Shown here: in pieces, positions 1 through 10,600 of the stretch
Layout: each line of letters begins with the position of its first letter
Numbering within the stretch: the stretch's first letter is position 1
Assembly (NCBI RefSeq): GCF_049969415.1
Contig: NZ_JBMFOX010000033.1
Location: 1-11,240 of the forward strand
Direction: 5' to 3'
Length of the DNA: 11,240 nt
From: Candidatus Hadarchaeum sp.
GTDB lineage: Archaea > Hadarchaeota > Hadarchaeia > Hadarchaeales > Hadarchaeaceae
Made by a program: the position numbers and the translations under genes
Notes under the pieces: model-generated
The model's database searches: none
What the model was told of the DNA's origin: nothing
Seen by the model: the letters and a program-made list of their open reading frames with translations, nothing else

Positions 1-473
1 GAACAGGCCTTAGAAAATGCGGGGATAGCGAAGTTCAACTTAGTGTCTGTCTCAAGCATAATCCCCCCAAATGCAAATTGATACTGCGGGAAGAGGGTCT
101 GAAACACCTGCACGATGGACAAATCGTTTTCGGTGTTTTCGCGAGATGCAACAGCGACGAGCGGAGGAGGCTGATATCCGCGAGCATAGGTTGTGCCCTC
201 CCAGCGGATGAGAACACTTGCGGGTACATCAGCGAGCACGATGCCTACGGGCAAACGGCGGAAGAGGCTGGCGATTACGCGGAAGACGTGGCAGCCTCCA
301 TGCTCGCGAGCGCGTTGGGTTTACCTTTCGACCCGAACAAAAGCTGGGACGAAAGAAAAAAGATATGGAAGATTTCTAAAAAAATCGTGAAGACCACGAA
401 CATAACTCAGACCGCCTTAGTTAAGGAGGGGATGTGGTCAACGGTCCTCTGCGCAGCGGTTTTCGTGTTATAG
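1..473 (+). CDS. pdaD: Pyruvoyl-dependent arginine decarboxylase, 5' end outside window, with a -1 frameshift at ~66-72 (sequencing error, pseudogene or programmed frameshift)
   Basis: Frame 1 from base 1 reads EQALENAGIAKFNLVSVSSIIPPNAN* (TGA 79-81) and carries the family NLV-x-VSSI self-cleavage motif. Frame 3 continues CKLILREEGL...SASIGCA...GYISEH...AEDVAASMLAS...WSTVLCAAVFVL* to TAG at 471-473. Confidence 0.88.
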   Translation, partial: TGLRKCGDSEVQLSVCLKHNPPKCKLILREEGLKHLHDGQIVFGVFARCNSDERRRLISASIGCALPADENTCGYISEHDAYGQTAEEAGDYAEDVAASMLASALGLPFDPNKSWDERKKIWKISKKIVKTTNITQTALVKEGMWSTVLCAAVFVL

Positions 474-2097: not shown

Positions 2098-2117
2098 TTA
2101 TTTGCGATTGCACAAAT
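2098..2117. promoter_or_regulatory. Palindromic operator copy 1 (TTATTTGC-GATT-GCACAAAT) in the mrp / methyltransferase divergent intergenic region
   Basis: Matches the copies at 9281-9300 and 10552-10571 and overlaps an AT-rich TATA-like tract (2114-2125). Confidence 0.7.
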
Positions 2118-2155
2118 ATAATTATCGTTGGTGAGGGTGAAGCGGCGGGAGTGGA

Positions 2156-2767
2156 ATGATGACGGCAGGCGATGTAGAAAAATTTGTGCGATTTTACAGC
2201 AGCGACTTCGGCAAGAAAATTCTAGCTAAAGAAGCCGAGTACCTAAAGGGCGAGTTGAAGGGGCGAAAAAAGATCCTCGATATCGGATGCGGAATTGGCT
2301 GTTTTGAAGAAATACTATCCGAGCTGAACATCGTTGGCCTCGACAACTCGAAGGAGGCATTAGAAGAAGCGAGAAGGAAGAGCGATAAAAGATTCGTGCT
2401 CGGGAATGCGGAACATCTTAATTTTCTCAACGGGACTTTTGACGGTGCCTTCACGGTGACGACCTTGGAATTCTTGGACAACTACAAAAAAGCCGTGGAC
2501 GAGGTGGCTAGAGTCCTGGAGCCGGGGGGCAAATTTGTTGCTATGATGTTAAATCCTGAATCGGAGTACTTCAAGTCTCATATAGGTAAACCGGACTCAT
2601 ATTTCAGGAAAATAAAGTGCACCAACCCAAAGGAGATAGAGCAACACATCTCTAGATCCTTTACCGCCGCTGGCGAATATTTTCTGGGGATACGAGGTCA
2701 AGAGATTTTCGACACTCGCGATAAGCATCTGGCAGCCCTGTACGTGGTCAAGGGAACAAGGGCTTAG
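2156..2767 (+). CDS. Class I SAM-dependent methyltransferase
   Basis: ILDIGCGIG motif I, GLDNS, GNAEHL-F-NGTFD, EVARVLEPGG. Confidence 0.9.
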   Translation: MMTAGDVEKFVRFYSSDFGKKILAKEAEYLKGELKGRKKILDIGCGIGCFEEILSELNIVGLDNSKEALEEARRKSDKRFVLGNAEHLNFLNGTFDGAFTVTTLEFLDNYKKAVDEVARVLEPGGKFVAMMLNPESEYFKSHIGKPDSYFRKIKCTNPKEIEQHISRSFTAAGEYFLGIRGQEIFDTRDKHLAALYVVKGTRA

Positions 2768-2783
2768 CTCTCACCAGATATTT

Positions 2784-3347
2784 TTATTTTGAGAAGATAG
2801 TGAAAGATTGCTCTGGCAGGAAATCAAACTCTTGCTTCACTCGATACCCGGCCTCTTTCATCTCTTCTATAATAGTTTCTCGAGGAACATAATGTCCAAA
2901 CATCCCGTGGAAGGTGAAAGGTTTGGCACGCTTGTACTCTACGATGGCAACTCTTCCTTTTGGTTTTAAGAAGCGTCTCAATTTTTTAAAATATTCCACT
3001 CGATTTGTTAAATGGTGGCACACATTGCGCATAAAGACTAAATCTAAACTTCTTTCGGGCAAAGCCAAGTCTTCTCCAGCAACAAGGATTGTTTCAACAT
3101 TATTGAGCCCCTGTTCCTTAGCACTGTTCTTGATAAATTTCAGAAATCTTGGATTTGTATCGACCGCGTACGCCCTCCCTTTTCTTCCAACGGCTTCTGC
3201 GAACCGTAGGCAAAAATAGCCGCCTCCAGCCCCAACATCCGCAACATTTTGTCCTTGCCGCAATTCTAAGGCTTCTAATATCTGATCAGGTTTATTTCTC
3301 GGATCAGAAGCTTTCCTGTTAAACACCTTTGCCTTAAGATTTCTCAT
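2784..3347 (-). CDS. Class I SAM-dependent methyltransferase (UbiE-like)
   Basis: VADVGAGGGYF, AYAVD, LPERSLDLVF, LKPKGRVAIVEY; GAGG RBS upstream of the ATG. Confidence 0.9.
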   Translation of the reverse strand: MRNLKAKVFNRKASDPRNKPDQILEALELRQGQNVADVGAGGGYFCLRFAEAVGRKGRAYAVDTNPRFLKFIKNSAKEQGLNNVETILVAGEDLALPERSLDLVFMRNVCHHLTNRVEYFKKLRRFLKPKGRVAIVEYKRAKPFTFHGMFGHYVPRETIIEEMKEAGYRVKQEFDFLPEQSFTIFSK

Positions 3348-3413
3348 GTTTATCCTCGTTTCATATTTATTTGGGAATTGTGTTTAGTTTATACTTGGTG
3401 GGGCTTGGATAAA

Positions 3414-3881
3414 ATGACAAAATTGAAACCGATATGGATAATCTACACCCCATACAAAAAGGACGGGGACGTGCCATACCAATCGTGCAAATCGAAAGAT
3501 GTGGATGAGATTGAAGTTTCCAAGGAGTACGAGGAGGGGCTGAAGGACATTGAAGGGTTCTCCCACCTCATAATTTTGTACGAGTTCCACAAGTCCGTAA
3601 AGCGCTCGGTAAAAAAGGAGCATTACTTGGAGTCGCAGGGGCTTTTGGTAAAACCTTACCTAGACGACACTCCACGCGGGCTTTTTGCCACGAGATCCCC
3701 AAACAGGCCAAACCCAATTGGGCTCACCATCGTCGAGTTGTTGGAGCGCAAAAGAAATGTCTTAAAGGTAAGGGGCGTCGACATGCTCGATGGCACCCCC
3801 CTCTTGGATATCAAACCCTATGTCCCGAAGTTTGACCAAAGAGATAACGTTAGAATCGGCTGGCTTGAAGGAAAGATATAG
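3414..3881 (+). CDS. tsaA: TsaA/TrmO (YaeB, UPF0066) family SAM-binding protein, N-terminal domain only
   Basis: GLKDIEGFSHL, GLFATRSPNRPNPIGLT, GVDMLDGTPLLDIKPY, RIGWL. ATG 3414 preferred to TTG 3378. tRNA m6t6A activity is not certain for this single-domain form. Confidence 0.9.
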   Translation: MTKLKPIWIIYTPYKKDGDVPYQSCKSKDVDEIEVSKEYEEGLKDIEGFSHLIILYEFHKSVKRSVKKEHYLESQGLLVKPYLDDTPRGLFATRSPNRPNPIGLTIVELLERKRNVLKVRGVDMLDGTPLLDIKPYVPKFDQRDNVRIGWLEGKI

Positions 3882-3894
3882 GATACACGATACC

Positions 3895-5241
3895 CTATCG
3901 ACTTCTTGCCGCATTCTGCGCTGCTAAAACCAAGGGATACATGGTGGGAGGAGGCGTGAGATAGGGATGGGTGGCCATCTGAAAAGTTTCCAGTTCTGTT
4001 ATAGTGAATCTCCTTTGTATCGCGATTCCGATCGCGTTAATTAACTCCCCGCAGGACATCCCTCCAGCCACTTGTCCCCCCAGCAAAGCTTGACCCTCCT
4101 TTGAGAAGACCAGCTTAACCAACACCTTATGCGCTCCAGGCAGTACGGAAGGATGTTTGTCCACGGCCTCGGCCTTACCTGATACTACATCAAATCCCTC
4201 TCGCTTTGCCGTGTTCTCCGTCAATCCGGCAGAACCCAACACGAGCCCGCCAACATAAGTGGAGAAGATCCCAATAGTCCCCTTGCTCTCGCGCAACACC
4301 TTCAATTTATATAGATTCGCTCCAGCAATTCGGGCTTCTGCGGTGGCGATGGAAGCAAGCAGGACAGGGGCGTCCTTCCGGGTAAAAAAGTCCCTCTTGC
4401 CCGCACAGTCTCCGATAGCGAAAATATCTGGGTCTATAGTTCTCATGTATTCATCAACCCAGATGCCCTTTCCTTTCCCAAGCTCAAGACCCGCATCTAG
4501 GGCCAACTTAGTATTAGGACTAGCCCCGACTCCTAAGATAACGCAATCGACATCGATTTCTTCCCCAGTTGAAAGGCGTACCTTCCTGACCCTTTCATCG
4601 CCCATCACTTCTTCCGCTCTGGTCCCGGTCAAAATTTTTACCCCTTGAGACGACAATTTCTCCTCAACCAGCTCGGAAAATTCAGGGTCAAAGGAATTGG
4701 CCAAAAGATGGGGGAGCATCTCCACTACGATGACTTCGGGACCTTTAACCTTAGAGAGCTCGTCTGCAAGTTCTACCCCGATAAAGCCCCCACCCAGAAC
4801 TAGAACCCTTTTACATCCCCTCGCATATTCTACCATATCCTTGAGATAGTTCAGGTCTTTTCTTATTGAATACACTCCCTTCTTATCAATACCTGGAATC
4901 GGCGGAAGGATGGGATTGGAACCGAGAGCCAAGACCAATTTTTCATAGCGATAATCATTGCCACTCTCGGTGTGGACTATCCTGTTCCGGCGGTCAATCT
5001 TGACCGCACGATCCACCACGAGTTCGATGTTCTGTTTTTCCAAGGACATGTAGCTCATAGCGTTTTGCTCGGGTTTTTCCAAGCTCGCGATCATGTAAGG
5101 TATGCCACACGGAATAACACCTCTCTCCACATCCCTCATCAGCAAGATTTTCTTTTCGGGATAATTCCAGCGAGCGGTAAGGGCGCAAACAATTCCCGCC
5201 GGTCCTCCACCTATGATTAAGACATCTGTATCCCTCTTCAT
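3895..5241 (-). CDS. FAD-dependent pyridine nucleotide-disulfide oxidoreductase (CoA-disulfide reductase / NADH oxidase family)
   Basis: IIGGGPAG FAD motif, single redox Cys in PCGIPY, GGGFIG..VEM NAD(H) motif, T-DPDIFAIGDC, C-terminal dimerisation domain. ATG 5241 follows an AGGGAG RBS (ORF track starts at 5262). Confidence 0.92.
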   Translation of the reverse strand: MKRDTDVLIIGGGPAGIVCALTARWNYPEKKILLMRDVERGVIPCGIPYMIASLEKPEQNAMSYMSLEKQNIELVVDRAVKIDRRNRIVHTESGNDYRYEKLVLALGSNPILPPIPGIDKKGVYSIRKDLNYLKDMVEYARGCKRVLVLGGGFIGVELADELSKVKGPEVIVVEMLPHLLANSFDPEFSELVEEKLSSQGVKILTGTRAEEVMGDERVRKVRLSTGEEIDVDCVILGVGASPNTKLALDAGLELGKGKGIWVDEYMRTIDPDIFAIGDCAGKRDFFTRKDAPVLLASIATAEARIAGANLYKLKVLRESKGTIGIFSTYVGGLVLGSAGLTENTAKREGFDVVSGKAEAVDKHPSVLPGAHKVLVKLVFSKEGQALLGGQVAGGMSCGELINAIGIAIQRRFTITELETFQMATHPYLTPPPTMYPLVLAAQNAARSR

Positions 5242-5374
5242 CGTATCTCCCTTTCTCATCATTCATCCAATTTAACTCTTTGCTTCATCATGCTTTGTTT
5301 TTAAACTTGTCTCATAAAACACGGAATGTAGTTAAATTAAATCTTCATTCTTGTTTTCCAGGCTATCTGCGACT

Positions 5375-5674
5375 TCATAACTTATCTTGTATAGATTTTA
5401 TTTTGCCTTCCATGCTCAGCGGCTTGTCGCGTCGGTCGTCAATTTTAATGATGGTGACTACCCTCAGGATTTCTTTATCAAAAACAGCTTCGTGCATCTT
5501 CTTAGCCAGATCTAAGAGATTCTTCAGATCTCCCTCCACGATTGTCCCCATTGAGGTTAGCTCATATTTAATGTCCTTCTCTTTGTTCAATATCTCAAGA
5601 GCATCCGCAACGTGTTTGCTAACCGAAGGTGTTTTTGCTCCCAGGGGGATGACACTTATCTCCATTATCGCCAT
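5375..5674 (-). CDS. MTH1187/DUF77 thiamine-binding protein family
   Basis: MAIMEISVIPLG..SVSKHVA, YELTSMGTIVEG, RVVTIIKIDDRRDK; GGAGG RBS before ATG 5674. Confidence 0.92.
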   Translation of the reverse strand: MAIMEISVIPLGAKTPSVSKHVADALEILNKEKDIKYELTSMGTIVEGDLKNLLDLAKKMHEAVFDKEILRVVTIIKIDDRRDKPLSMEGKIKSIQDKL

Positions 5675-5727
5675 TTTTATCTCCTCCGTTTCAGCTTTTC
5701 CCAACTGCTATCAGGATTCGGATTAAC

Positions 5728-5931
5728 TTAGCCTTGCTGGGCCCAAGGCGGCCCTCCGGCGCCACGTCTCCCGCCAGGCGGCCCCTTGTCGATGCGATGA
5801 ATCATCGCTGCCGGAGCACCACACTTGGGACATGCCGGTGGCTTGGGCACCCCTTGGGGAACTTCTATAATGTTTCCGCAGGCGAAGCACCTGAACCTTT
5901 TGGTCGGCACCATAGCAGGTGGTTGCGCCAT
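5728..5931 (-). CDS. Small zinc-ribbon/rubredoxin-like protein (CxxC-x15-CxxC) with G/R/P-rich tail
   Basis: 67 aa, FRCFACG...CPKCG...IHRI. The ATG overlaps the upstream ATPase stop (TGATG) and follows a GGGGGTGA RBS. Confidence 0.8.
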   Translation of the reverse strand: MAQPPAMVPTKRFRCFACGNIIEVPQGVPKPPACPKCGAPAAMIHRIDKGPPGGRRGAGGPPWAQQG

Positions 5932-6857
5932 CAGATTTCACCCCCTTTCAGTCTGTCTCGAATGGTTAAAATTAAGGACATCAACGCTTTTCCGGCTGGG
6001 CTGTTCGGAGCTTTCTTCATCAGAGGCTCGCCCGCGATGTAGGAACGCAAGAGTTCCTCATCCAAGGGGATTTCAGCGGTTAACTTGATCCCTCGTTCAT
6101 GACATATATTTAGGAGTTCGTCCTTTAGCCCACCTGGAACATCGGCCTTGTTCAAAACCACTTCCACAGGTAATTCCAGCTCTCGGGCGAGGGCTAAGAT
6201 AAATTTCAAATCGTGCGTGCCCAAGGGCGTGGGTTCGGTCACGGCTAGGGCAAGGTCGGAAACCCATAAGGGCTGAGCCACGGTGTTGTGAACCCCTGGG
6301 GCGGTGTCGATTACTGCCACATCGTATCCTCCATTCCGCAACTCGCTGATGGCACGGAGCACCGTCGCGCGCGCCATCAAAGGGGATCTTGGCTCCGTCG
6401 GCTTCAGCTCGCCCACCACGAGCTTGAGTCCGTCGGCGTCTGCGGTGTAAGTAGTTCCGATCGTTTTCCATCCGTCCCCTATGGCCCCATATCCACAAAC
6501 CAACTTGCATGCTCCGCATCCCGAACAGAGTTCCTCAAAAAATATCGGAGTTTCTCCTTGGAGACTGATTAACGCATGTTCATGGCAAGCGTCCACGCAT
6601 TTCATACATCCAACACATTTCGTTTCTTCGATTACCGGTCTAAAGGTCCTTACCTCGTTGCCGGCATCGAGTTTCATCCCCAACAACGCTGCGCAGCACG
6701 GTCCATCGACATCAGCATCGACCAACATGACCTTTAAGCCCTCCATGTTAAGGCCCACAGCCAAGTTCACGGCGACCATGGTTTTGCCTGTCCCCCCCTT
6801 CCCTCCAGTAACAGCCACAATCGGCACGTCCACGTTTTTCTTCCTGAGAGTCACCAC
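5931..6857 (-). CDS. MinD-superfamily P-loop ATPase with inserted 2x[4Fe-4S] ferredoxin domain (COG1149-type), copy B
   Basis: TGGKGGTGKT, DADVDGP, CVGCMKCVDAC and CSGCGACKLVC, DTAPG, VTEPTPLGTHDL, VLNKAD. Confidence 0.92.
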   Translation of the reverse strand: MVTLRKKNVDVPIVAVTGGKGGTGKTMVAVNLAVGLNMEGLKVMLVDADVDGPCCAALLGMKLDAGNEVRTFRPVIEETKCVGCMKCVDACHEHALISLQGETPIFFEELCSGCGACKLVCGYGAIGDGWKTIGTTYTADADGLKLVVGELKPTEPRSPLMARATVLRAISELRNGGYDVAVIDTAPGVHNTVAQPLWVSDLALAVTEPTPLGTHDLKFILALARELELPVEVVLNKADVPGGLKDELLNICHERGIKLTAEIPLDEELLRSYIAGEPLMKKAPNSPAGKALMSLILTIRDRLKGGEI

Positions 6858-7747
6858 AAAATTTCCCCCACTTTATTTCCTATCGCAGCCAGAGCTTTCG
6901 AGGCTTTTGTATCAGGATTAAACTCTATGATTGGCTTCATTTGTACAAGTGCTTTGGCGACTTCGTAGTCGATGGGAATTTCACCTAAAAACTGAAACCC
7001 GAGTTCACGCACAACCCAATCTTTGAGGACGATTTCGAAATCCTTTGAATAACCGCTCTTGTTTATCACCACACCAGCGGGGACATCGAAGTGCTTTATG
7101 ACTCGGGACAAGCGCTCAAGGTTCCTTTTCGCGGCAGGTGTAGGTTCTGTCACAGCGATGACATAGTCCGCGCCCGTGATGGAGGCTATGACCGGACAAC
7201 CTATGCCAGGTGCAGCGTCAACTATAAGCACATCGCTCCCTTCGTCCTGCGCTTTCCTTCGCGCGATATTCCTTATGCTCGCCACGAGGTGTCCGGAGTT
7301 GTGTTCACCAAGTTTTAACTTCCCGGTTGCGCATCCGAACCCATATTTAGTCTCTTCAATGCTGAGCGTGCCTGTGTCTGCCTCGTTTACCTCGATCGCA
7401 TTGGTGGGACACACGAGCTTGCAAACACCACATCCCTCACACATAAGTTCCACCACTATTGCCCGTCCGCCGTCTGGCATTGCCATCGCTCCGAAGGGGC
7501 AAACTTCGACGCACTTGCCGCAGGAAACGCATTTGTCTACATCAACTCTGGCCTTCTCCGAAGCTCTGACATTCATAGAAAAAATATTCTTTCCGCCGCC
7601 GAGCGCCAGTAATAGGTCAGGGGCATCCACGTCCGCATCTGCCACGAAAACTTTTACCCCCCTTTTAGCCAGAAAAACGGCGAGGGAAGCCGCAACCGTG
7701 GTCTTGCCAGTACCACCTTTCCCGGAAGCGACCACAATTTCCTTCAA
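6851..7747 (-). CDS. MinD-superfamily P-loop ATPase with inserted 2x[4Fe-4S] ferredoxin domain (COG1149-type), copy A
   Basis: SGKGGTGKTT, DADVDAPDL, CVSCGKCVEVCP and CEGCGVCKLVCP, GEHNSGHLV, DAAPGIGCPV, VTEPT. TTG start after GGGTG. Confidence 0.93.
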   Translation of the reverse strand: MKEIVVASGKGGTGKTTVAASLAVFLAKRGVKVFVADADVDAPDLLLALGGGKNIFSMNVRASEKARVDVDKCVSCGKCVEVCPFGAMAMPDGGRAIVVELMCEGCGVCKLVCPTNAIEVNEADTGTLSIEETKYGFGCATGKLKLGEHNSGHLVASIRNIARRKAQDEGSDVLIVDAAPGIGCPVIASITGADYVIAVTEPTPAAKRNLERLSRVIKHFDVPAGVVINKSGYSKDFEIVLKDWVVRELGFQFLGEIPIDYEVAKALVQMKPIIEFNPDTKASKALAAIGNKVGEILW

Positions 7748-7757
7748 CAGCTACACC

Positions 7758-8651
7758 CTAGCGTGAGCCGATGATGTACTGGTTTATGGCGTCTTTAATT
7801 TTCACGCCGGGTGGAACCATCACCATTTGAATTCCGAATTGGCCAGCAACAGCAGACACGTTAGGGCCAAATCTCCCGGCCAAGATATGCCCCACGCCTT
7901 CGGCGGCGAGCATCTGAACCACGGCTATCCCAACTCCGCTTGGCGAAGAGATAAATTGGTTAGGTAGGATCTTCACACTTTTGATATCTTTACCATCGAT
8001 TTCCACGATAGTGAAGTTCGGACATCTGCCAAACATGGGCGACACCATGTCGTCGAGCCCTCCCGGTCCTTGGCTTGCAACACCTACCTTAAAGCGGCCT
8101 GTCGGTGGAGGAGAAGGCTTCGGCGTTTGTTGCGGAGGATATTGCGTTGATGGAACCATCGGCGGGTAAGGGCCCATTCCCCCTCCCATCCATCCCCACA
8201 TTCCACGTCCCATACCCATTCCTCGGCCCATTCCCATCCCGGGACCAAAAGGGAACATAACGGGAGTCGGAGATGATTCAGCTCCTTCCTTGGATTCTTT
8301 GCAGGCGTCCTCCAGTGAAGCCAGCTTGGCCTTGTCTTCAACCAGTTCATTCACGGCTTCTTTGACTGTTTCAGCCGAGGTCATGTAAACACCGATACCG
8401 CTCTGCGCAAGAAGTTGCATCGCCTTGGGCCCCATTCCCCGTGTCACTACTGCGTCCACGCCGCTGGATGCCAAGATCTCAGCTGGAGTTTTATCGTAAC
8501 CAAAATGAGTTCCCCGGTTGTCGATGATGCTCACGCCGACTATTTTACTATTCTTGAGCTCCACTACGGTGAATACGTCGCAACGGCCGAGGTGAGGGGA
8601 GATTGTCGCATCGAGTCCGCCAGGCGTGTTTGATGGTATGGCTATTTTCAT
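7758..8651 (-). CDS. Tandem NifB/NifX-family (IPR003731, IssA-like) protein with G/M/R- and P-rich linker
   Basis: Domain 1: MKIAIP..ISPHLGRCDVF..GMGPKA..GIGVY. Domain 2: KVGVAS..VSPMFGRCPNF..GVGIAVVQ..GRFGPN. Linker: GMGMGRGMGMGRGMWGWMGGGMG followed by a Pro-rich stretch. Confidence 0.9.
   Translation of the reverse strand: MKIAIPSNTPGGLDATISPHLGRCDVFTVVELKNSKIVGVSIIDNRGTHFGYDKTPAEILASSGVDAVVTRGMGPKAMQLLAQSGIGVYMTSAETVKEAVNELVEDKAKLASLEDACKESKEGAESSPTPVMFPFGPGMGMGRGMGMGRGMWGWMGGGMGPYPPMVPSTQYPPQQTPKPSPPPTGRFKVGVASQGPGGLDDMVSPMFGRCPNFTIVEIDGKDIKSVKILPNQFISSPSGVGIAVVQMLAAEGVGHILAGRFGPNVSAVAGQFGIQMVMVPPGVKIKDAINQYIIGSR
8172..8240 (-). repeat. Coding low-complexity repeat (GMGMGR)x2-GMWGWMGGGMG
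   Basis: Imperfect GGRATGGG-type repeats inside the NifX-like gene. Confidence 0.7.
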
Positions 8652-8694
8652 GGCGATTCTACATCCTTGATTTTGTAATGGCGTTGTTCACGCT

Positions 8695-8979
8695 TTACTC
8701 TTTCTTGGTCAGTGCTCCCTTAAGTTCACTTATCCTAGCCTCGACGCCTTTGAGTTCCTCCTCGAGCTCTGCCTTGTATGCCTCCAGAGCTTCGATCTCC
8801 TGCTCCGGCGTCGGTGGAGAAGGCACGAACGGCGGAAGTGGGTAGTAAGGTGCCGCTGGGGGTTGTTGTGCAGGTTGCGAGGGTCGCTGCGGCGCTTGCG
8901 CGTATGGCGGATAGGGTGGATACATCACGTATGGATTTATGTACCACCACCAGCATCTCCAACCTCTAGGCCACCACAT
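8695..8979 (-). CDS. DUF5320-like small protein: W-rich N-terminus, P/Y/Q-rich middle, C-terminal coiled coil
   Basis: Likely start ATG 8979 after a strong AAGGAGGT RBS. 94 aa: MWWPRGWRCWWW...PEQEIEALEAYKAELEEELKGVEARISELK. Confidence 0.82.
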   Translation of the reverse strand: MWWPRGWRCWWWYINPYVMYPPYPPYAQAPQRPSQPAQQPPAAPYYPLPPFVPSPPTPEQEIEALEAYKAELEEELKGVEARISELKGALTKKE

Positions 8980-9007
8980 TTTTTCTAACCTCCTTTCATT
9001 TTGTTTG

Positions 9008-9265
9008 TCAATATCCCGGGTAGGGGTACTGCGGATAGGTCGCGTAGGGGTATCCGTAGGTGCCTGGATAAGCCCACCACCACCTCGGAAGCCATGGGAA
9101 TCTAGCACAGACCCAAGGGTTCCACCACCAACCTCTGCCGAAACCGTACAACCATCCCGGCCTCTGCCAAGGCGGTAAATAGCTGAAAGGACCCCTACCA
9201 GGCCAAGGCCCAAACCAGCCGCGACCACCTCGACCTATTCCCCAACCGAAACCTGGCCACCACAT
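9008..9265 (-). CDS. W/G/P/Y-rich low-complexity small protein (resembles the N-terminal part of DUF5320-like proteins)
   Basis: 85 aa with a GAGGTGG RBS, first gene after a BRE/TATA promoter. Motifs GPWPGRGPFSYLPPWQRPGW and CARFPWLPRWWW. Confidence 0.8.
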   Translation of the reverse strand: MWWPGFGWGIGRGGRGWFGPWPGRGPFSYLPPWQRPGWLYGFGRGWWWNPWVCARFPWLPRWWWAYPGTYGYPYATYPQYPYPGY

Positions 9266-9280
9266 ATTTTACCACCTCTG

Positions 9281-9300
9281 TTTTGTGTTATTGCACATAA
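9281..9300. promoter_or_regulatory. Palindromic operator copy 2 (TTTTGTGT-TATT-GCACATAA)
   Basis: Most symmetric copy; lies between the TATA box and the RBS of the 9265 gene. Confidence 0.78.
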
Positions 9301-9302
9301 TT

Positions 9303-9317
9303 ATATTTAAGCTTTTC
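9303..9317 (-). promoter_or_regulatory. Archaeal BRE/TATA promoter of the 9265-5375 operon
   Basis: Minus strand reads GAAAAGC-TTAAATAT, ending 38 nt upstream of ATG 9265. Confidence 0.75.
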
Positions 9318-9325
9318 GATGGTTT

Positions 9326-10189
9326 TTACAATGAGACAACATCACCGGTTCTAAGCTGCCTGCACTTCTCCCCGAAGACTTCGATAAACTTTGCAATTGC
9401 TTTCTCTCCGGTACAATGACACGGCATGATGGCTTTCACACCAGCCCTTTGGAGTTCCCCGACGGTTGCTCCTATCCTTTTAGCGCTCGCGTTCGCCAAG
9501 TGAAAACCCCCAATCACAGCATGCACTCTCTTCGAACCTGTCGCCTTCTGAGCCTGCTTGATGGTGTTAATCAAACCTGCGTGAGCGCAACCCGTGATTA
9601 TCACCGATCCTTTACTCCTGACTGTCACGAAAAGTGCCTGATCATCTATCATGTGATCATCGACTAGCTTGCCCCCTTTTGTGGTCTTGAATCCTTTGAC
9701 CCTTTCCAATTGGCTGGTCCTTTTAATCTCTCCGCTTACCAAAACTCCAGGCATTATGGATGTTTGTCCTCGTTTCAGGATTAAGATGCCGCCCGATTTC
9801 TTCAGCTCTGAGGCCTGAAAGGGGATGCCAGCTTTTTTGAGACGTTTCTTCTTCATCACGAATTTTGGCTCGAGCGCTCCCGGATGAGCTATCACCGGCA
9901 CTTTCCGGCCGATGTGTTTCAGGATGCCCAAGAGTCCGCCGGTGTGGTCGTAGTGCCCATGGCTCAGCACAATCGAATCTACCTTTCTCAACTCGATGCC
10001 TAGTTTCTGGGCATTTTGCATGACGATATCCGCAGATGGCCCGGTATCCATCAGCAAGTTGGTCGTATGTCCTCCAGCTTTCAGCTCGATGAAAAATGAT
10101 AGCCCGTGCTTGGCGGCGAGTTCTGACTGGAGCTGGTTTTTGAAATCATCGACCAAGACCGTGAGCCGCATCCCATCGACTTGGCTCAA
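9326..10189 (-). CDS. MBL-fold metallo-hydrolase (COG1237 / MJ0301-like)
   Basis: HGLSF, LMDTG, LSHGHYDHTGG, DDQAL, TGCAHAG, IGGFHL, PCHCTG. Its TTG start overlaps the DUF134 stop. Confidence 0.92.
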   Translation of the reverse strand: MSQVDGMRLTVLVDDFKNQLQSELAAKHGLSFFIELKAGGHTTNLLMDTGPSADIVMQNAQKLGIELRKVDSIVLSHGHYDHTGGLLGILKHIGRKVPVIAHPGALEPKFVMKKKRLKKAGIPFQASELKKSGGILILKRGQTSIMPGVLVSGEIKRTSQLERVKGFKTTKGGKLVDDHMIDDQALFVTVRSKGSVIITGCAHAGLINTIKQAQKATGSKRVHAVIGGFHLANASAKRIGATVGELQRAGVKAIMPCHCTGEKAIAKFIEVFGEKCRQLRTGDVVSL

Positions 10190-10536
10190 ATACCCCTCTC
10201 CTCTGAAGGCGGGGGAGGTGCAGGCGTGATCACGAGTGGACGGCGTTCGACGAGCATACAGGCAACCTTTTTCCTAGCACTTTCCAAGCAGCGCCACACC
10301 GTCCCCCGCGAGACTTTCATTCGTTTGGCAGCCTCCTCCTGGTTCAGCCCTTCGTGATAGATGAGACAGAATGCCTCGAGCTCATCGTATGTCATGTAGA
10401 TGGGCTCGCCTCCTGATACTGGCAGATTATCCGGGCCAATGGGTGCAAACCCTGCTACTTCCAACATCACGCGGACGAACCTAGGTTTCATTGGCCTCCC
10501 AGGCCCAAGCCGTCGCCAACACCATCTTCGACGCAT
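10186..10536 (-). CDS. DUF134 (UPF0251) HTH DNA-binding protein, probable regulator of the cluster
   Basis: GRPMKPR, FAP, DELEAFCL..EGLNQEEAAKRMKVSRGTVWRCLESARKKVA..LVE. Confidence 0.92.
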   Translation of the reverse strand: MRRRWCWRRLGPGRPMKPRFVRVMLEVAGFAPIGPDNLPVSGGEPIYMTYDELEAFCLIYHEGLNQEEAAKRMKVSRGTVWRCLESARKKVACMLVERRPLVITPAPPPPSEERGI

Positions 10537-10551
10537 GTAAATCTGTATAAT

Positions 10552-10571
10552 TTTTGTTCATTTGCACGTAA
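10552..10571. promoter_or_regulatory. Palindromic operator copy 3 (TTTTGTTC-ATTT-GCACGTAA) upstream of the DUF134 gene
   Basis: Ends 15 nt before ATG 10536 and overlaps a BRE/TATA-like GGAAATC-TTTTAC on the minus strand. Confidence 0.72.
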
Positions 10572-10600
10572 AAGATTTCCTATTGTTTGGGCCAGTTTTT

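Follow-up and report, generated by a model that had tools for sequence, protein, structure and literature searches.

Three copies of a palindrome as candidate operators of a DUF134 protein in Candidatus Hadarchaeum

Small helix-turn-helix (HTH) repressors which control their own gene through a palindromic operator are a well-known kind of system. The candidate presented here is new in its family assignment, namely to DUF134 (UPF0251, PF02001), an old family which is widespread in anaerobic archaea and bacteria and has no assigned role. The DNA analysed, referred to below as the window, is an entire contig (C33) of 11,240 bp from a Candidatus Hadarchaeum genome (1.47 Mb in 138 contigs, 95% complete). 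It encodes a DUF134 protein (10186-10536, minus strand) and carries three copies of a 20-bp palindrome, and the comparisons described below make it likely, in our judgement with good confidence, that this protein binds all three copies as operators. We infer repression, as opposed to activation, from the same sequence evidence and regard it as likely too, though held a little less firmly than the binding itself.

A class of archaeal repressors occupies the stretch which separates the TATA box from the start of transcription. The palindromes of the window resemble the sites of these repressors in following or overlapping a TATA-like element and in ending about 15 nt before a start codon; the differences are that DUF134 belongs to another protein family and that the geometry in the window is a predicted one. 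The protein with which DUF134 can best be compared is DeoR of Bacillus subtilis. Its DNA-binding domain dimerises via the beta-strand which follows the HTH, and the two domains lie about one DNA turn apart on the operator; the left half-operator of dra-nupC-pdp, ATTGAACAAAATTTCAAT, is read with base contacts in TTGAACA (PMC11229326, the part of the text available). According to the same source, the hallmark of the SorC family is a sugar-phosphate effector domain (PF04198) which lies at the C-terminus and has about 250 amino acids (aa).

For the genes behind the palindromes, the closest described sets are those of IssA and ORP. IssA of Pyrococcus furiosus, which stores iron-sulfur (Fe-S) species as thioferrate, joins a NifX-type IPR003731 domain to an unstructured tail with a high content of Trp, Gly, Arg and Pro, and is produced only under abundant iron and sulfide; the accessible portion of the source names no issA regulator (PMC5524996). 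The orp operons of Desulfovibrio are jointly controlled by sigma-54 together with a cognate regulator, according to a title cited in the available part of PMC6345978. No DUF134 binding site appears in the available parts of PMC5886521 (in which a UPF0251 gene is simply listed), PMC5524996, PMC8351635 and PMC6345978. More generally, no DUF134 function or binding site was found in the literature searched, whose coverage did not extend to the primary papers on sipA/issA regulation and on the orp operons. This agrees with the preliminary description of the window, which held that DUF134 has no characterised function, and the NCBIfam name of the family is still “hypothetical protein”.

The DUF134 protein of the window is 116 aa long and matches PF02001 with 59.4 bits (cut-off 27) over model positions 5-90 of 98. 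Against the NCBIfam equivalog PRK04217 it scores 97.4 bits, below the cut-off of 115, and it also gives a Sigma70_r4 match of 28.2 bits. Its HTH is of the sigma-70-region-4/DeoR type, with the recognition helix SRGTVWR. In the structure model, helices occupy residues 50-61, 66-73 and 77-97, with a predicted local distance difference test (pLDDT) above 90, and are followed by a strand at 101-103; by fold, the model matches the DNA-binding domain of DeoR as well as sigma region 4. Within the PDB, the DeoR DNA-binding domain of B. subtilis (7bhy, 8r7y) comes closest both in sequence and in fold, with an E value of 6e-7 over HTH residues 53-90 and a root-mean-square deviation of 0.6 A over 41 columns. 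A homodimer model reached an interface score (ipSAE) of 0.78, against 0.00 for the best control, with contacts agreeing in 85% or more of the runs and a partner pLDDT of 71-72. The mark applied is one which 20 of 30 solved homodimers attain, as does one of 23 solved monomers, and the pass may partly reflect the likeness of this protein to the solved dimers of DeoR DNA-binding domains.

The likeness to DeoR is also apparent in the residues and bases that would meet. The recognition helix of DeoR reads ISRPTVSR, that of the window protein SRGTVWR and that of bacterial DUF134 proteins SRPTFxR. As a dimer, DeoR binds a palindrome which has a TGAAC half-site and the same 11-bp G-to-C spacing as the palindrome of the window, and it represses from a position overlapping the promoter (available part of PMC11229326). 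Its half-operator ATTGAACAAAATTTCAAT matches TGNNC-N4-GNNCA with one mismatch and identical spacing. On the other hand, DeoR forms tetramers and ends in an effector domain of about 250 aa, whereas DUF134 is a 116-aa protein without such a domain; DeoR lacks the N-terminal GRPxKPR arm of DUF134; and the archaeal half-site is TGTGC, not TGAAC. The SorC effector domain PF04198 had no match anywhere in the 95%-complete genome, which leaves two DUF134 paralogues (the window protein and a second one on contig C1) as the only DeoR-type HTH proteins found. Among eight matches representing longer, fused forms of DUF134, PF07907 was present in three and a NifX domain in none, blanks being weak evidence in this case. 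From these comparisons DUF134 appears to work like the DNA-binding domain of DeoR, yet is not a member of the SorC family.

The palindrome, its promoters and its distribution

The comparisons drew on 31 relatives, 66 genomes of the phylum, the 46 genomes of family f1 and 80 DUF134 loci from named genomes; PF02001 was detected in 16 of the 31 relatives and in 34 of the 66 Hadarchaeota genomes. In the labels used below, G000 is the genome of the window and L001 a stretch of its contig C1 (G000:C1), while all other G and L codes denote compared genomes and loci.

The three palindromes lie at 2098-2117, 9281-9300 and 10552-10571, where the preliminary description had placed them and with the same letters, and each falls between open reading frames (ORFs), as it had also stated. 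They are given here in the orientation of the genes behind them, all of which are on the minus strand, and with the scores of the matrix introduced below. Copy 1 (ATTTGTGCAATCGCAAATAA, 25.5 bits) belongs to the promoter of a Mrp-DUF364 unit and is situated in a 73-bp divergent spacer common to the Mrp gene and a methyltransferase gene. Copy 2 (TTATGTGCAATAACACAAAA, 29.5 bits, the top match of the genome) precedes a DUF5320/NifX-like/MinD-ferredoxin operon, and copy 3 (TTACGTGCAAATGAACAAAA, 24.1 bits) is a putative autoregulatory site in the promoter of the DUF134 gene and its metallo-beta-lactamase (MBL)-fold neighbour. The distance to the start codon, put at 15-24 nt previously, holds at its low end: in all three cases the first possible start lies 15 nt past the end of the site (GTG at 2082 for Mrp, ATG at 9265 for the DUF5320-like gene and ATG at 10536 for DUF134).

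The contact with a TATA-like element which had been proposed for every copy stands for the first two and, with another element, probably for the third. The element ATAATTAT (2118-2125) abuts operator 1 directly upstream in gene orientation, and ACGATAATTAT is kept ahead of the Mrp-promoter site in G015, G004 and G007. At operator 2, the TATA-like TTAAATATAA (9301-9310, minus strand) is located directly upstream, behind a purine-rich CGAAAAGC (9311-9318, minus strand) which resembles a transcription factor B recognition element (BRE); this promoter assignment follows the usual archaeal promoter geometry, and the layout of AAAGCTT plus TATA-like element was found again in relatives. At copy 3, the element meant was probably the gene-side TATAAT (10546-10551), which we rejected as a TATA box because it is too near the ATG. 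The likelier element, weaker than those of copies 1 and 2, is TCTTTTAC (10568-10575), which overlaps the distal end of operator 3 as part of a candidate BRE/TATA, GGAAATCTTTTAC (10568-10580, minus strand); GRAAATCTTA is kept at the DUF134 promoters of G001, G002, G003 and G007. Transcription in archaea usually starts about 25 nt past the TATA centre, a spacing from which the three operators would span about -2 to -25. Sites which begin at a TATA-like element, or overlap one, and stop 15 nt short of the start codon have the geometry expected for a repressor.

In order to avoid circularity, the genome was scanned with a symmetrised matrix for which 18 sites from other genomes had been used. The consensus of this matrix, TTATGTGCAATTGCACATAA, was derived independently from relatives and agrees with the TTWTGTGC-N4-GCACAWAA proposed earlier from the three copies. 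The five best matches in the genome were the three window sites together with C1:34057, which lies 5 nt upstream of a DUF5320 paralogue, and C1:39133, about 12 nt upstream of the second DUF134 gene. The scores were 29.5, 25.5, 25.5, 24.1 and 18.4 bits, with the window sites among the best four, and genomes simulated by an order-2 Markov model contained a mean of 0.7 matches at 17 bits or more. The motif is rare elsewhere in the genome and not frequent at random positions. Within the window, the 20-bp consensus of the preliminary description (up to three mismatches) found exactly three sites against 0.13 expected, a number reached in none of 200 shuffles; this test is circular, the consensus having been drawn from the same three sites.

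All three promoters retain the site in related Hadarchaeota. With regard to the autoregulation predicted from copy 3, the motif is located ahead of both DUF134 paralogues of the genome and of the DUF134 genes of four same-genus relatives, and in a weaker form ahead of those of three more. The site is near-identical (about 26 bits) at the DUF134 promoters of G001, G002, G003 and G007 and recognisable, as TAATGTGCAATACCACT (15-17 bits), at those of G004 and G010, while the DUF134 promoter of G019 contains a related palindrome, TTTCGTGATATTTCACATAA. The promoters of DUF5320 operons carry an almost perfect palindrome, TTATGTGCAATAGCACAAAT, in G009, G004, G010, G007, G015, G028, G057 and others, and across 11 such Hadarchaeota promoters the 20 motif columns held 1.66 bits per column, compared with 0.47 in the upstream and 0.36 in the downstream flank. 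At the Mrp promoter, the site was found in all eight DUF134-positive f1/f5 genomes with this Mrp orthologue (14-28 bits), the conserved part being TTTYGTGCAATCGC; the scores were 26-28 bits in G015, G004 and G007, and 14-20 bits in G003, G009, G013 and G028. In G006, a genome of the same genus in which no DUF134 was found, the best score at the Mrp promoter was 0.5 bits, and by its sequence this genome appears to be a natural loss case. At the corresponding locus of G006 (L044, G006:C12:3804-7634), feoB leads straight into Mrp and the entire DUF134-to-MinD block is apparently missing.

The motif follows DUF134 across genomes, a co-occurrence on which its assignment had been made to depend. Within family f1, perfect copies of the core 14-mer TGTGCWWWWGCACA were present in 11 of the 21 DUF134-positive genomes and in none of the 25 DUF134-negative ones (Fisher p 3e-5, a value which is overstated, as the relatives are not independent). 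When up to one mismatch was allowed, the positive genomes contained 51 sites against 22 in a backwards-read control, and the negative genomes 18 against 35.

Other phyla and the recognition helix

Outside the Hadarchaeota, the same 14-mer (with up to one mismatch, among the 80 DUF134 loci) adjoins DUF134, DUF5320 or NifX-like genes in Desulfurococcales (L059, L060 and L066). Two perfect tandem copies occupy the space between divergent DUF5320 and DUF134 genes in Ignisphaera aggregans (L061), and a perfect copy is placed ahead of NifX-DUF134 in a metagenome-assembled genome (MAG) of the Thermoplasmata (L067). At the DUF5320/NifX promoters of these five loci the site comes directly after a TATA-like element and is followed, in most of them, by a ribosome-binding site of the GGTG type and then the start codon. 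The DUF134 proteins of these archaeal loci all have the helix SRGT[VL]WR.

Bacterial DUF134 genes with the helix SR[PVSAQ]T carry TGAACATATGTTCA, TGAGCATATGCTCA or TGATCAAATGATCA about 20-100 nt upstream. Perfect matches to the general form TGNNC-N4-GNNCA within 300 nt upstream of a DUF134 match numbered 13, in 11 of the 80 loci, against 0.36 expected; the latter figure is a uniform expectation, a reversed-sequence control being invalid for a palindrome, which remains one when reversed. Half-site and recognition helix appear to change together across lineages. The Gly- and Trp-containing helix SRGT[VL]WR pairs with TGTGC, helices of the type SR[PVS]T (Pro, Val or Ser) mostly with TGAAC, and SRQT (Gln) with TGAGC at three loci or TGATC at one. 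The TGAAC form, which we take to resemble the Gram-positive LexA box, may be argued to belong to DUF134 because it is placed before DUF134 in many phyla. Among 30 loci without the S-R-x-T helix pattern the palindrome (up to one mismatch) was found upstream in only three, one of them being the archaeal L069, an Aenigmatarchaeota MAG in which two copies of the 14-mer at up to one mismatch likewise adjoin DUF134, DUF5320 or NifX-like genes.

The Firmicute-type DUF134 proteins (L073-L133) form a group with the helix ARTTVQ. They carry a C-x3-C at the N-terminus and cysteines at the C-terminus, which possibly constitute a metal or cluster site. The TGNNC-N4-GNNCA palindrome was not seen upstream of their genes, and they may use another operator.

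Alternative explanations

Several observations weigh against DUF134 as the reader of this motif. The most serious are promoter-like sites in three f1 genomes in which DUF134 was not detected: before feoA/feoB in G012 and G052, and between feoB and a NifX-like gene in G053. A profile search with E values up to 10 found no DUF134 in any of them, nor in G048 and G006. The three sites belong to the 18 (up to one mismatch) of the DUF134-negative f1 genomes, 13 of which were inspected; eight of these lie in ORFs of at least 174 aa and five are seemingly intergenic, the remaining two of the latter (in G048 and G042) being of unclear meaning. The preferred reading is also at odds with the spread of the site ahead of DUF134 itself: among 15 upstream regions of this gene in relatives, four contained a strong site, three an intermediate one, and eight no site within 170 nt, these eight including all four members of the f4 subfamily (helix SQPTFHR). 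In a similar manner, six of 17 loci with the SRGT-type helix (three from Hadarchaeota or close relatives of these, 14 from other archaeal groups) lacked a site at up to one mismatch, and two more were doubtful, since the only match of L062 lies 840 nt downstream with no annotated gene beside it and the best match of L071 has two mismatches. The Mrp site has a degenerate right half in G003, G009, G013 and G028. The TATA elements were assigned by eye and the transcription start sites derived from geometry only. Finally, DUF134 has no evident sensor or ligand domain, and its cysteines are not conserved.

In the f4 subfamily, where DUF134 is followed by Mrp, a TGNNC-type site was looked for and none was found. 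One of its loci (L005, G027:C1) carries a perfect 18-bp palindrome, TAAGGTGTAAACACCTTA, about 45 nt ahead of DUF134, which may be the operator of this subfamily.

Sites in genomes without a detected DUF134 might mean that the palindrome is a real operator read by another transcription factor, with DUF134 merely one of the target genes. We consider this unlikely. The three genomes concerned are just 79-87% complete, and the site stands directly ahead of DUF134 genes in five archaeal phyla. Moreover, a palindrome of the same architecture precedes bacterial DUF134 genes, with a half-site which varies with the DUF134 recognition helix, and this architecture is also bound by the homologue which, among solved structures, is nearest to the DUF134 HTH. 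The sites upstream of feoA-feoB in L022 (G012:C25) and L140 (G052:C100) share a conserved TTATGTGCAATTGCMMATAA; the two genomes are 79% and 87% complete, with no DUF134 detected.

A far less probable explanation is that the likeness of the sites stems from A/T-rich core promoters, duplicated promoters or chance, with no dedicated factor. The 14-bp core TGTGC-N4-GCACA alone (up to two mismatches) is indeed at chance level in the window, with five matches where 3.89 are expected, a count also reached in 68 of 200 shuffles. One of these two-mismatch matches, TGTGCGATTTTACA at 2185-2198, lies 29 nt into the methyltransferase ORF (2156-2767) and is probably accidental. The TTAT and ATAA flanks are typical of archaeal promoters, and two of the five genome sites come from paralogous gene pairs, the C1 promoters being paralogous to those of the window, so that part of the likeness may be inherited. 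The genome scan with a matrix of the three window sites, which had been suggested as a check, gave only a modest excess, with three extra matches (at two loci) of at least 19.5 bits against 0.53 expected; what distinguishes the two loci is their place, before the DUF5320 paralogue and before the second DUF134 gene. However, with the matrix from other genomes the five sites are the top five of the genome, the most conserved part is the G/C-containing core and not the A/T flanks, the motif occurs at non-homologous promoters (Mrp, DUF5320 and DUF134) and in distant phyla, and it is absent from the Mrp promoter of G006. Overall, this explanation is largely refuted.

It is equally improbable that the palindrome is a hairpin of RNA or DNA, for example a structure of the 5' leader or a terminator of the upstream gene, and not a protein site. 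Any inverted repeat invites this interpretation, and copies 2 and 3 lie just past the stop codons of the same-strand MBL and feoB genes. Against it, the sequence itself is kept and not merely its pairing, and natural variants such as GAACA and GCAAA in place of GCACA break the pairing without compensation. The sites are not followed by a run of T, a hairpin with mostly A/T arms of 5-8 bp would be weak, and by the usual geometry the site is upstream of the expected transcription start.

DtxR, an iron-dependent repressor with two genes on C1, could be suspected from the iron-related neighbourhood and from the motif before feoAB in G012 and G052 (in G012 with a DtxR-family gene beyond feoB on the same contig and strand), but as a binder of the motif it is ruled out for practical purposes by its phyletic pattern (it is present in 30 of the 31 relatives, motif-less ones included) and by the dtxR-feoA promoter, which has no TGTGC site and contains other boxes, TTAGGTTCGCCTAAA and TTAGGTTTACCTAA, with no core in common with TGTGC-N4-GCACA. 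These two boxes are located just ahead of the dtxR-feoA start (L001 11884-11925, G000:C1) and probably form the operator through which DtxR controls the feo operon, in a circuit apart from the TGTGC motif.

The predicted regulon and its significance

The targets of DUF134 would be five units. Three would lie in the window, namely the DUF134-MBL unit to which it belongs, the Mrp-DUF364 unit and the DUF5320/NifX-like/MinD-ferredoxin operon; the other two would be the paralogous DUF134 and DUF5320-NifX units of C1. In the first of these, the MBL-fold gene (9326-10189, minus strand; Pfam Lactamase_B) overlaps the stop codon of DUF134 by 4 nt. This pairing is seen again on C1 and in G004, G009 and G010, and the MBL-fold protein may be a partner or sensor for DUF134.

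The operon behind copy 2, likewise on the minus strand, opens with two DUF5320-like genes, both of them rich in Trp, Gly, Arg and Pro codons. The first (9008-9265, 85 aa) has a paralogue with a PF17253 match, and its homologues stand behind the operator in other phyla too. The second (8695-8979, 94 aa, with a coiled-coil tail and a weak PF17253 match, E 0.0019) was taken from an internal ATG of the ORF 8695-9228. Next comes a gene for one protein with two NifX-like (Nitro_FeMo-Co) domains (7758-8651; PF02579, 132 bits in two stretches), which aligns with the C-terminal part of the NCBIfam MrpORP model. It is followed by the genes of two P-loop ATPases of the MinD/ParA type which contain 4Fe-4S ferredoxin inserts (6851-7747 and 5931-6857; Pfam); these genes were assigned to the operon on account of their 10-nt and overlapping junctions. 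A small 72-aa gene without an assigned family (5723-5941), whose homologue adjoins NifX in G057, is probably the last or next-to-last of the operon.

Behind copy 1, again on the minus strand, the first gene encodes an Fe-S carrier ATPase of the Mrp/NBP35 (ApbC) type (1237-2082; PF10609, 322 bits). Its match to the NCBIfam MrpORP model reaches 352 bits, under the cut-off of 450, and extends over model positions 1-250 of 365 only, leaving the C-terminal part unmatched. The second gene (479-1240), which overlaps the Mrp stop, belongs to DUF364/DUF4213 (“putative heavy-metal chelation” in Pfam). The window further holds the 3' end of feoB (beyond 10726, minus strand; Pfam/NCBIfam), a thiamine-binding-protein gene and a pyridine-nucleotide-disulfide oxidoreductase gene.

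A paralogous iron neighbourhood is present on C1, where dtxR-feoA is followed, in order, by feoB, the second DUF134 (PF02001, 57.9 bits), MBL, dtxR, ZIP, radical-SAM, rubrerythrin-VIT1, DUF5320, NifX-like, rubrerythrin, peroxiredoxin and ferritin genes. The predicted regulon is set among feoB, dtxR, ferritin, VIT1 and rubrerythrin genes, and the C1 paralogue of DUF134 probably also uses the operators described here. Both regions contain, in addition, a match to pyruvoyl-dependent arginine decarboxylase (window 3-473 and L001 7530-7853, both on the plus strand), the C1 copy being just a 107-aa piece.

We propose that DUF134 binds, most likely as a symmetric dimer, with each helix SRGTVWR reading one TGTGC half of TGTGC-N4-GCACA, so that the contacted G/C positions of the two half-sites would be 11 bp apart, and with the N-terminal GRPxKPR arm possibly touching the A/T-rich flanks. 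Because the operator begins at or overlaps the TATA-like element and ends near the expected start, the bound dimer is expected to hinder the polymerase, by blocking its access or that of the pre-initiation complex. The weakest step of the argument concerns the signal. This is presumably the Fe-S or iron/sulfide status of the cell, relayed by a NifX-like, DUF5320 or MBL partner; a protein partner is favoured as the sensor because DUF134 is devoid of a ligand domain and of conserved cysteines.

By analogy, the target genes are probably an ORP/IssA-like set which handles or stores Fe-S species. The ORP/MrpORP set of Desulfovibrio likewise comprises a Mrp/NBP35 ATPase, NifX-like domains and MinD-type ATPases with ferredoxin inserts (available part of PMC6345978), and both it and the window set are Fe-S handling genes of the anaerobe type. 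The two differ in that the NifX-like domain of MrpORP is fused C-terminally to Mrp, whereas the NifX-like domains of the window are on a separate protein, and in their control, by sigma-54 and a cognate regulator in the one case (from the cited title in PMC6345978) and by the proposed DUF134 operator in the other. With IssA, the window operon has in common the PF02579 NifX-like domains and the DUF5320 proteins, rich in Trp, Gly, Arg and Pro, which resemble the IssA tail in composition. In IssA, however, domain and tail are on one protein, while the “tail” of the window is found on separate proteins and is likened to it by composition alone. The operon may represent a split IssA-like Fe-S store.

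A broader interpretation can be put forward only tentatively. DUF134 proteins might be minimal regulators shared by both domains of life, consisting of a DeoR-type domain without an effector, which read TGNNC-N4-GNNCA and serve as dedicated switches of ORP/IssA-like genes with a simple helix code and indirect sensing. Within such a code, the residue after Ser-Arg and the Trp three further may set the central bases of the half-site (TG, AA, AG or AT). The Fe-S or thioferrate load, for its part, may be sensed via NifX-like, DUF5320 or MBL proteins acting as co-repressors or anti-repressors. If true, this interpretation would name the missing regulator of iron- and sulfide-dependent expression of the IssA type.

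To conclude, the window contributes the TGTGC variant of the Hadarchaeota, a predicted five-site regulon, the apparent loss case of G006 and the pairing of helix and half-site. A predicted operator, a predicted regulon and a solved structural analogue make DUF134 a directly testable regulator. It is thereby tied to the poorly understood ORP/NifX-like/DUF5320/Mrp gene sets, which are probably concerned with Fe-S storage or traffic where iron and sulfide are plentiful. The paired variation of helix and half-site amounts to a small natural series for the study of how this type of HTH reads DNA, and for the uncultured Hadarchaeota the system would be a first regulatory circuit which can be tested with the purified protein alone.

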